Shown one piece after another: positions 17,627 through 18,716 of a DNA stretch of 64,000 bases (position 1 is the stretch's first letter; each line of letters begins with the position of its first letter). The notes beneath the pieces are model-generated. The model was not told where the DNA came from and ran no database searches. It saw nothing but the letters and a program-made list of their open reading frames with translations. This stretch comes from Escherichia coli. Its GTDB lineage: Bacteria; Pseudomonadota; Gammaproteobacteria; Enterobacterales; Enterobacteriaceae. Both the position numbers and the translations under genes were made by a program. The DNA is taken from assembly GCF_003018235.1 (NCBI RefSeq), contig NZ_CP027437.1, one strand, 5' to 3'.

Positions 17627-18109
17627 TTATTCTCCGGTGTGGGGCGTTTTATTCTGTTCGCGTAATAACTCTTTTTCTCTTAAATTGAATTCAGCTACGT
17701 AATCGGCATAATCAGCGGTAATATTCAGTACATCCACTCCCGTTGCTTTATATTCTTTCATACCAAGTAAGAAAAAAGATGCCCTTATCAGTTCCGATAT
17801 TGATGAAAGCGCATCAGTCGCATCATCGGATAATCCTGAAAATTCCTGTTTCAGGGCATTAAAACGATCATCACGCATAACCCCCCCATTTTCACAATCA
17901 GCAATCAGGATAGCTTTGGCCTCATTCAGTGCCATATCAGCGGTAAGCTGTGCGTATGCCAGTGAATGCGGGATTATTGCCCCGGTATATTCCGTCTCTC
18001 TGGTAATGTGTTTTTCTGCGGTTGCTGCCGTGCATGAAATATCAATCAGCGCGTGCATTAGCGTTCTGATAGCTTCGGCGGCTGCGTCCGGACGGATGTT
18101 ATTGCACAT
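17627..18109 (-). CDS. hypothetical protein
   Basis: 160 aa ORF; ATG at 18109 verified; overlaps upstream gene stop. Confidence 0.5.
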   Translation of the reverse strand: MCNNIRPDAAAEAIRTLMHALIDISCTAATAEKHITRETEYTGAIIPHSLAYAQLTADMALNEAKAILIADCENGGVMRDDRFNALKQEFSGLSDDATDALSSISELIRASFFLLGMKEYKATGVDVLNITADYADYVAEFNLREKELLREQNKTPHTGE

Positions 18110-18716
18110 GTATCACCCCCTGACGAATACGGGCGGCGAATACAGCAACACAACCAGACGGGCAACGGCTACGCGCTTCGCGTTCCGTCCAGGCGGTGAC
18201 GTGGATGATTTGGGATTCTGACGCGCAAAAGATGATAAAGCGCCAGATAAAGGCAGTTTGAGAATGTACGAGGGTAGGGATAGTAGCCATGTTGGCAGCC
18301 TCCTTTATCGTTGGGATAACCCCACCGCCGGAGGTGGTAAGCTCGCTGGCGGTGGACTGTACGGAGTTACCACAACTGGCGATAAAGGAAACCAGCCCGA
18401 CCGAAGTCGGCCCCGTACAGCCCACCATTGTAAAGGTGTGCGTGTGCGCCGATACAAAAAAAGACGCGTGCGGCGTCTGTATCGCCTTTATCTCCAGCGG
18501 GGTGGTAATCCCGGCACCCGTTTTATGAGGTGCACGGGAATCATAGCCATTTCCACCAGTGGCGATCAACTGGTTTTTCTGGCGAGCTTCCTGTTCGCTG
18601 GTGGCCTCAATGGTAATCACGCGCGGTTGTGCCGTGCTCAGGGCGATAAAACGCCAGATGTATTTATTCAGGTTGTACGAGCCCCGCCCTTGCGGGTGTG
18701 TGGTATGATTTCTCAT
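18099..18716 (-). CDS. hypothetical protein with internal tandem repeat
   Basis: 205 aa from ATG 18716 (GAGG site); two copies of an IWRFI...EAR motif; in-frame ATG at 18290 with AAGGAGG site. Confidence 0.4.
   Translation of the reverse strand: MRNHTTHPQGRGSYNLNKYIWRFIALSTAQPRVITIEATSEQEARQKNQLIATGGNGYDSRAPHKTGAGITTPLEIKAIQTPHASFFVSAHTHTFTMVGCTGPTSVGLVSFIASCGNSVQSTASELTTSGGGVIPTIKEAANMATIPTLVHSQTAFIWRFIIFCASESQIIHVTAWTEREARSRCPSGCVAVFAARIRQGVIHVQ

Follow-up and report, generated by a model that had tools for sequence, protein, structure and literature searches.

The 64,000-nucleotide stretch of Escherichia coli DNA analysed here (contig NZ_CP027437.1; referred to as the window) carries, on its minus strand, an open reading frame (ORF) of 205 codons that contains two copies of an IWRF…EAR motif. 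This frame is the immunity-control region of a P4-like satellite and not a tandem-repeat protein; the region as a whole is very probably the immunity and early-control module of an E. coli P4-like satellite prophage, with the layout of P4 nested in an eta-like frame. The system is of a known kind, namely the P4-type arrangement of eta and kil combined with immunity through the CI and seqA RNAs; here it is a mosaic, with a fragment of another Icd-like gene upstream. What appears to be preserved is the open frame, and not a two-domain protein. The features that make up the region are listed below in nucleotides (nt) and amino acids (aa).

18099–18716, minus strand: 205-codon ORF, the 3' portion of a 504-codon ORF that starts with the ATG at 19613
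18099–19628, minus strand: eta-like open frame in phase with kil; first ATG at 19613, with ATG 18716 as an alternative start
18576–18716, minus strand: motif copy 1, the 5' end (47 codons) of another Icd-like gene, cut at the cassette junction (~95% DNA identity to E. coli ESDR8)
18162–18575, minus strand: immunity cassette of 414 nt (138 codons, in frame), delimited by blastn breakpoints against the ESDR8 locus (L001)
18540–18569, minus strand: putative internal promoter, PLE-like, with a sigma-70-like TTGATC-N18-TATGAT from a consensus scan
18457–18533, minus strand: isrK-type small RNA, corresponding to the P4 seqA / c4-a1b1 target region (Rfam RF01394, 63.5 bits)
18462–18478, minus strand: putative intrinsic terminator forming the isrK 3' end, a GC-rich hairpin followed by a T-run
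18345–18432, minus strand: C4 / P4 CI-type antisense immunity RNA (Rfam RF01695, 78.4 bits)
18293–18324, minus strand: seqC/a'b'-like predicted C4 target over the kil ribosome-binding site (RNAduplex, -38.4 kcal/mol)
18299–18305, minus strand: Shine-Dalgarno (SD) sequence AAGGAGG of kil, 8 nt before the ATG at 18290-18288, read directly
18099–18290, minus strand: kil/icd-like gene of 63 aa plus stop (stop at 18099-18101), a full-length NF033153 match of 59.7 bits

RNA genes and a nested kil-type gene

The two motif copies occupy residues 20-47 (copy 1) and 157-184 (copy 2) of the 205-aa ORF, and their local alignment score is 66, compared with a mean of 21 (standard deviation 4) and a maximum of 42 in 2,000 shuffles; an earlier sequence-only reading of this DNA, which described a 205-aa frame with two motifs of ~30 aa, is confirmed on this point. 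The profile search with the repeat unit that it called for places both motifs, independently, in the NCBIfam family NF033153 (host cell division inhibitor Icd-like protein; cutoff 25 bits); copy 2 covers profile positions 1-48 of 48, while copy 1 covers positions 1-32 only, with 40.4 bits, and is a truncated fragment. The further description of the ORF as an internal tandem-repeat protein does not hold, as the copies are not tandem but 137 residues apart with RNA genes between them, and copy 1 is both truncated and dispensable. Adjacent complete units that are kept together are not what relatives display; the upstream motif is carried by only 10 of 50 distinct upstream ORFs from Kil-type loci, in two junction types, and copy 1 is therefore considered a dispensable relic. 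The 137 residues that separate the motifs are the translation of the isrK and C4 RNA genes plus the putative internal promoter and terminator.

Both RNA matches can be set against the Rfam gathering scores, which are 50 for RF01394 and 45 for RF01695; the isrK match spans the full model (positions 1-77), and 24 nt separate it from C4. In a comparison of 19 diverse relatives the C4 fold has 27 consensus pairs, 14 of them with compensatory double changes and almost none broken; the parts of C4 that vary are the second hairpin loop and the single-stranded segment that follows it. The isrK matches of several relatives overlap the Rfam family c4-a1b1 ("a1, b1 targets of C4 antisense RNA"). The putative promoter ends 7 nt before the isrK 5' end with 9 of 12 consensus matches, and its site aligns with the TTGCCT...TATAGT found upstream of the isrK match of P4; the TTG of the -35 element is shared by at least 90% of the 43 Kil-type loci compared, whose -10 element fits TAxxxT. 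At 8024-8123 of an Enterobacteriaceae metagenome-assembled genome, an isrK match ends 22 nt before the conserved start codon; the RNA scan gave no C4 match in this locus, which points to a cassette variant without the antisense RNA. A different RNA, int-alpA (RF02996, 64.2 bits), is located between integrase and alpA in a P4-like element of E. albertii (5202-5267); it has no match in the window.

The stretch that encodes the two RNAs is also recognized by a protein model, as Pfam PF10554 (Phage_ASH) matches residues 58-152 of the ORF with 49.3 bits, which is exactly the isrK plus C4 stretch. A genuine 205-aa two-domain protein of the Ash family, with two Icd-like domains, function throughout its length and merely incidental RNA matches, would explain this score, the presence of the exact ORF at NCBI as "ash family protein [Escherichia coli]", the match of phrog_29966 to residues 46-205 (311 bits) and a frame that is open in nearly all Kil-type relatives. 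It is nevertheless a very improbable reading: the Ash match coincides with two RNA genes with 14 compensatory base pairs, and in 46 distinct Kil-type sequences no codon-position signal is found in isrK (ratio 0.85, p=0.80) or in C4 (ratio 0.96, p=0.58), unlike kil, where the third-codon-position excess of variation is 1.28 (p=0.0008). As a selected protein domain Phage_ASH thus has a passing score but variation without a codon-position pattern, and the variation test shows purifying selection on RNA structure only. Copy 1, with its 32 of 48 profile positions, is deleted in 180-aa forms of the ORF. Stx and P1-like phages share the RNA stretch at 80-84% identity, and in them the frame is frequently closed. 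The best explanation of the Phage_ASH signal is that the RNA is conserved and the frame around it kept open.

Current annotation of the locus is confusing. The 504-aa version of the ORF has been called once at NCBI; the RefSeq models of relatives are pseudogenes, "ash family" proteins or a pair of Icd-like genes, without annotated RNA genes, and two Stx-phage records annotate both RNAs. PHROGs 6196, 1743 and 6928 match the 205-aa ORF and are labelled "transcriptional repressor". The RefSeq record of P4 still annotates a 137-aa 'cI gene product / transcriptional repressor' over the CI RNA; this obsolete coding sequence ("cI gene product (AA 1-137)", 8168-8584) matches Phage_ASH, and the repressor label of the PHROGs is most likely inherited from the old cI annotation of P4. 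Literature searches on Phage_ASH and ash family protein returned nothing relevant. The locus can now be settled: it has a pair of regulatory RNAs and a single small gene of toxin type, together with a frame whose importance seemingly is only that it is translated.

Copy 2 of the motif is a small protein gene in its own right; the exact sequence is RefSeq WP_249926963.1 (Icd-like), and the product is 44% identical to P1-type Icd (E=1e-9). The sequence-only reading had pointed to the ATG at 18290 with its AAGGAGG site and to a separate 63-aa product, and it was correct in both respects, as the site and its 8-nt spacer are read from the sequence and the product is a separately annotated RefSeq gene, nested as kil of P4 is nested in eta. 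Its long ORF with a strong internal start therefore corresponds to the documented eta/kil arrangement, with the RNA content missed. The SD-region block AGGAGGCTGCCAnnATGGCTAC of kil is invariant across five diverse elements. The 63-aa product is proposed to be an Icd/Kil-type cell-division inhibitor or toxin.

Pairing of the C4 core (18398-18361) was predicted with RNAduplex, and energies are given in kcal/mol. The predicted duplex with isrK 18514-18471 has an energy of -41.6, and the cognate isrK of the window ranks best of 23; the downstream target at 18293-18324, which includes CGAUAAAGGAGGC, the kil SD sequence, is the best of 28 candidates, the next best having -30.9. Both C4 sites are in the top 0.2% of all 70-nt segments of the 64 kb. 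Across loci, the cognate mean for the downstream site is -36.2 versus a non-cognate mean of -27.4 (standard deviation 4.6), and for isrK -38.6 versus -28.1 (standard deviation 4.7); the specificity segments differ between loci, and each C4 favours its own flanks. Three other 70-nt segments pair like the cognate sites (plus strand 30801-30870, -42.9; minus strand 1000-931, -40.0; minus strand 57070-57001, -38.0); these are probably tail events among 3,654 segments. A third C4 target just upstream of the start of copy 1 (CTAACCACCAACGATAACC, ~18743-18760) was considered and rejected, its energy of -20.9 being background (mean -22.5).

Proposed cassette origin of the repeated motif

The repeat is proposed to be a by-product of modular recombination, in which copy 1 was fused in frame to a cassette carrying its own Icd-like gene. 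The 414-nt cassette holds the promoter, isrK, C4, the SD sequence and the first ~43 codons of kil, and it is missing in the ESDR8-type element; the flanking blastn matches are 3 nt apart in ESDR8 and 414 nt apart in the window, where positions 19184→18576 match the ESDR8 locus at 95% and positions 18161→17674 resume the match 3 nt further along. In ESDR8 the divergent YlcI gene is the same as in the window, and behind it is an intact Icd-like gene of 68 aa (MRNHTTHPQGRDSHNLNKYIWRFIALSTAQPRVITIEATSEQEARQQSPAGCVMVFAARIRQEVCHVQ); the RNA scan gave no isrK or C4 match in the ESDR8 locus. Copy 1 keeps the start codon and a GAGG SD sequence of that gene type, and its identity to ESDR8 runs up to the junction. 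The DNA identity common to copies 1 and 2 is limited to ~15 nt, so they are not the result of a recent duplication.

The left edge of the cassette, AAAAACCAGTTGATC (read KNQLIA), is also found in strain TW08637 when compared with strain FRIK944; here the resident gene is a different one, and 360 extra nt, again in frame, are joined to it at about codon 24. In the commoner 180-aa form of the ORF only MRNHTTHPQGRDSHNLNK is joined to the cassette, without the upstream IWRF motif, while strains EC12 and A19 have the junction of the window but RNA modules of other specificity types; at least three cassette junction types were found overall. At the other edge, the SD sequence and the first ~10 codons of kil (AGGAGGCTGCCAAnATGGCTACTATCCCTACCC, MATIPT…; 18288-18320) are kept even before an unrelated downstream protein (loci L006, L008, L013 and others); the unrelated proteins that follow the conserved MATIPT start include one of 215 aa in an Stx phage and a family of 149-158 aa. 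The right-hand boundary of the mobile RNA cassette is therefore placed inside coding sequence. Immunity cassettes of different specificity are thus exchanged by satellites and phages, and the boundaries of the exchange are fixed; one of them is inside coding sequence (MATIPT).

The open frame between alpA and kil

The in-phase frame contains no stop for 446 codons upstream of the kil ATG, and it opens at 19628, 37 nt after the stop of an alpA-type gene. The genes and sites that the frame crosses or adjoins are the following.

19666–19854, minus strand: alpA-type gene, homologue of P4 vis (ORF88) (Pfam Phage_AlpA, 65 bits)
18922–19119, plus strand: YlcI/YnfO-family small gene, antisense to the long frame (NF041551, 59 bits; phrog_949, 96 bits; DUF3950)
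18717–18921, no strand assigned: presumed control region of divergent type, separating the YlcI-like gene from copy 1, ~95% conserved with ESDR8
18815–18824, 18838–18847 and 18885–18894, no strand assigned: three TGTGCGCACA-type repeats, from a repeat search
17627–18109, minus strand: downstream gene of 160 aa (phrog_2512, 209 bits), whose ATG at 18109 overlaps the end of kil

The sequence-only reading had held the ORF not to be credible upstream of 18716. It was right in that this part has no protein-like features, the upstream 299 aa having no Pfam or PHROG family match and a non-protein-like look; its dismissal of the frame is doubtful, as 18717-19628 contains 304 further stop-free codons, compared with 24 and 18 stops in the other two frames. 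In a null model in which the two plus-strand ORFs were recoded synonymously and the three intergenic stretches shuffled, the joint probability of an open 18717-19628 is ~8e-6; this value comes mostly from the intergenic stretches, each of which is expected to hold ~4 stops. A frame that is a mere shadow of the plus-strand genes was rejected as an insufficient explanation at this joint probability.

The module is carried by roughly 1,000 E. coli genomes. For a comparison across elements, loci were gathered by the invariant SD-start DNA block alone and not by the frame, de-duplicated, and called open if at least 243 nt upstream were stop-free. Of the Kil-type loci, 34 of 35 have an open in-phase frame (the other two frames are open in 2 and 5), as do 24 of 40 loci with another downstream gene (2 and 1) and 5 of 16 P1-type icd loci (0 and 4). 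An open frame across RNA genes, without visible amino-acid selection, is what would be expected if translation as such were the function, as is reported of P4 eta. P4 likewise has an open frame from alpA to kil, of 152 codons, and about eight diverged E. coli variants with a long gap have one of 358-514 codons; several of these variants have a good SD sequence and an ATG 9-19 nt after the alpA stop. The stronger proposition that alpA-to-kil is always a single ORF was rejected, as a wider sample shows later opening in 14 of 45 loci; same-strand ORFs tile the alpA-kil gap in 34 of 36 loci by a test that is permissive. ESDR8 (340 codons) and FRIK944 (268 codons) have an open frame from the alpA stop to the icd start though they lack isrK and C4, so any selection on the frame would not be tied only to RNA immunity. 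The N-terminal part of a 409-codon upstream frame in an IMG/VR locus has a sub-threshold Bro-N remnant (E=0.035), consistent with eta-like frames being decayed Bro-network genes.

A tentative suggestion, perhaps somewhat more apt to fail than to hold, is that an E. coli P4-like sub-lineage keeps a frame of 358-514 codons stop-free from the alpA stop to the end of kil purely as a ribosome track. Such a frame would cross promoter DNA, the antisense strand of YlcI-type genes and two RNA genes without detectable amino-acid constraint, and as an extended, mosaic version of P4 eta it might shield read-through transcripts from Rho- and CI-dependent termination. The opposite position is considered improbable, namely that function is confined to the RNAs and the 63-aa gene and that the long frame, in its 205-codon part as well as in its 446-codon extension, is untranslated and arose by accident, as the shadow of genes on the opposite strand joined to RNA sequence that happens to be stop-free. 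The lack of a family match in the upstream 299 aa and their non-protein-like look suit an accident, as do the loci with unrelated downstream genes in which the frame is open (24 of 40) and those in which it falls short of alpA (14 of 45); in addition, the YlcI gene alone leaves the antisense frame open in 83% of synonymous recodings. An accident does not, however, agree with the joint null probability and the ~4 stops expected in each intergenic stretch, with a frame kept by all of the about eight diverged long-gap variants, several with a start close behind alpA, with a Kil-type rate above that of other contexts, with cassette junctions of 414 and 360 nt that are both in frame, or with P4, in which translation of Eta prevents termination (PMC10111431).

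A mechanism for the module is proposed because of the homology with P4 and P1 and the predicted pairing. The internal promoter (18569-18540) would make short transcripts that either stop at the isrK terminator or give rise to the C4/CI RNA by processing; the variable loop and the single-stranded segment of C4 would then pair with isrK 18514-18471 and with the kil SD site 18324-18293, which would block kil translation and let transcription terminate before the replication genes. When transcription comes from upstream, either from the alpA promoter or from a divergent promoter in 18717-18921, ribosomes would cross isrK, C4 and kil; their passage through the long frame would prevent termination and couple into the downstream genes.

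Several points weigh against this reading of the module and its frame. The promoter, the terminator, the RNA processing and the Rho-dependent termination are deduced from sequence and from P4 and P1. BLASTP gave no pairwise alignment between the 63-aa Kil of the window and the Kil of P4, and because of this their homology rests on the common NF033153 profile and on synteny. The two-copy form may have arisen by gain of the cassette, or the one-copy form by deletion between the repeats; either direction is compatible with the loci compared. The difference in openness between Kil-type and other loci has a Fisher p=8e-5, in which independence is overstated since the loci are related; 60% of the loci whose downstream gene is unrelated likewise have an open in-phase frame, and some of the openness may come from conserved RNA sequence that is simply without stops in that frame. 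The long frame of the window has its first ATG 52 nt beyond the alpA stop, with a weak SD sequence, which makes coupling to alpA uncertain here.

If the alpA-to-kil frame is kept by selection, it would be a clear case in nature of an ORF whose conservation is owed to its translation rather than to its product; if it acts as a ribosome track, the Ash family, part of the Icd-like family and the PHROG transcriptional repressor families would be by-products of the frame.

The product of the YlcI/YnfO-family gene (NIRFPHELIDGIDA…NFSAWVLDAC) resembles, by eye, a ribbon-helix-helix DNA-binding protein, and the gene is divergent from copy 1; the TGTGCGCACA-type repeats in the 205-nt divergent region could be candidate operators for it. 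The overlap between kil and the 160-aa downstream gene suggests translational coupling from the former to the latter. On the plus strand, 19493-19528 contains a strong hairpin and then a T-run, located downstream of a 74-aa ORF (19177-19401) and with a weak match to ctRNA_p42d (E=0.38); it looks like a terminator for the YlcI unit of the plus strand, placed within the long frame of the minus strand. Far from the module, the SraB small-RNA gene (63134-63302, minus strand; RF00077, 209.8 bits) is a chromosomal enterobacterial marker and fits an E. coli chromosome.

Comparison with known systems

The immunity region of P4 reportedly consists of the PLE promoter, seqA, cI (the CI RNA), seqC and kil, nested in eta, an arrangement said to have been described by Forti et al. 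in 1999 and Sabbattini et al. in 1995. In P4, translation of eta or kil prevents Rho-dependent termination (timm), and the CI RNA is matured by RNase P. In the P4 sequence (NC_001609), an isrK match (8615-8692) and a C4 match (8420-8507) form the same pair as in the window; the frame 8168-8812 runs for 214 codons without a stop, with an MMM 197-199 codons from its end, and its last 65 residues (MATTLTPSHPEF…) match NF033153 with 73.9 bits. Kil of P4 is a truncated Eta that is translated on read-through, and full-length Eta is made only from the upstream late promoter, coupled to the alpA homologue (PMC10111431). The Rfam C4 and isrK profiles are known to pick up relatives of CI and seqA (PMC10111431).

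The window resembles P4 in the order of its parts, namely the alpA/vis homologue, a long open frame, an internal promoter (putative in the window), isrK/seqA, C4/CI, the SD target and the NF033153 gene. In both, a small kil is found at the 3' end of a frame that starts upstream of the internal promoter; the NF033153 gene that ends the long frame is 63-65 aa, P4 having a kil of 65 aa in an eta of 197-199 aa, and the frame of the window is 205 to 504 codons. The two differ in the length of the frame upstream of kil, 446 codons in the window and 152 in P4, and in that the frame of the window crosses a YlcI-type gene in antisense; the segment upstream of its promoter is an Icd-like gene fragment that is missing from P4 Eta. 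The gap between isrK and C4 is 24 nt in the window versus 107 nt in P4, and the Kil of the window is nearer to P1 Icd than to P4 Kil.

The immI operon of P1 and P7 is said to consist of the c4 antisense RNA, icd and ant, as is credited to Citron and Schuster in 1990 and Riedel et al. in 1993. The window is similar to it in having a C4 RNA directly upstream of an Icd-family gene, the ribosome-binding site of which is predicted to be masked via two short complementary sites, and in a specificity that covaries between elements. It differs in that no ant gene follows the icd-like gene and in its context, a satellite with integrase, alpA and replication genes; moreover, the upstream frame is usually closed in P1-type loci.

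The isrK-orf45-anrP region of Salmonella Gifsy-1 is a third related system. Its IsrK has its own promoter and a leaky intrinsic terminator, with read-through into a small translated ORF; a processed downstream RNA, STnc1160, overlaps the small ORF and is complementary to IsrK (PMC4825925). The likeness to the window consists of an isrK with a promoter and a terminator, both putative in the window, a small ORF beyond it and complementarity to downstream RNA; however, the downstream gene of Gifsy-1 is an antirepressor and not an Icd/Kil gene, and a long ORF entering from upstream is not described there (PMC4825925).

Lastly, Phage_ASH and the 'ash family protein' resemble the window ORF in profile score and in the name given to the exact sequence at NCBI. 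The difference is that the matched residues are translated isrK and C4, without a coding signature, and the 'cI protein' coding sequence of P4 matches the same model.

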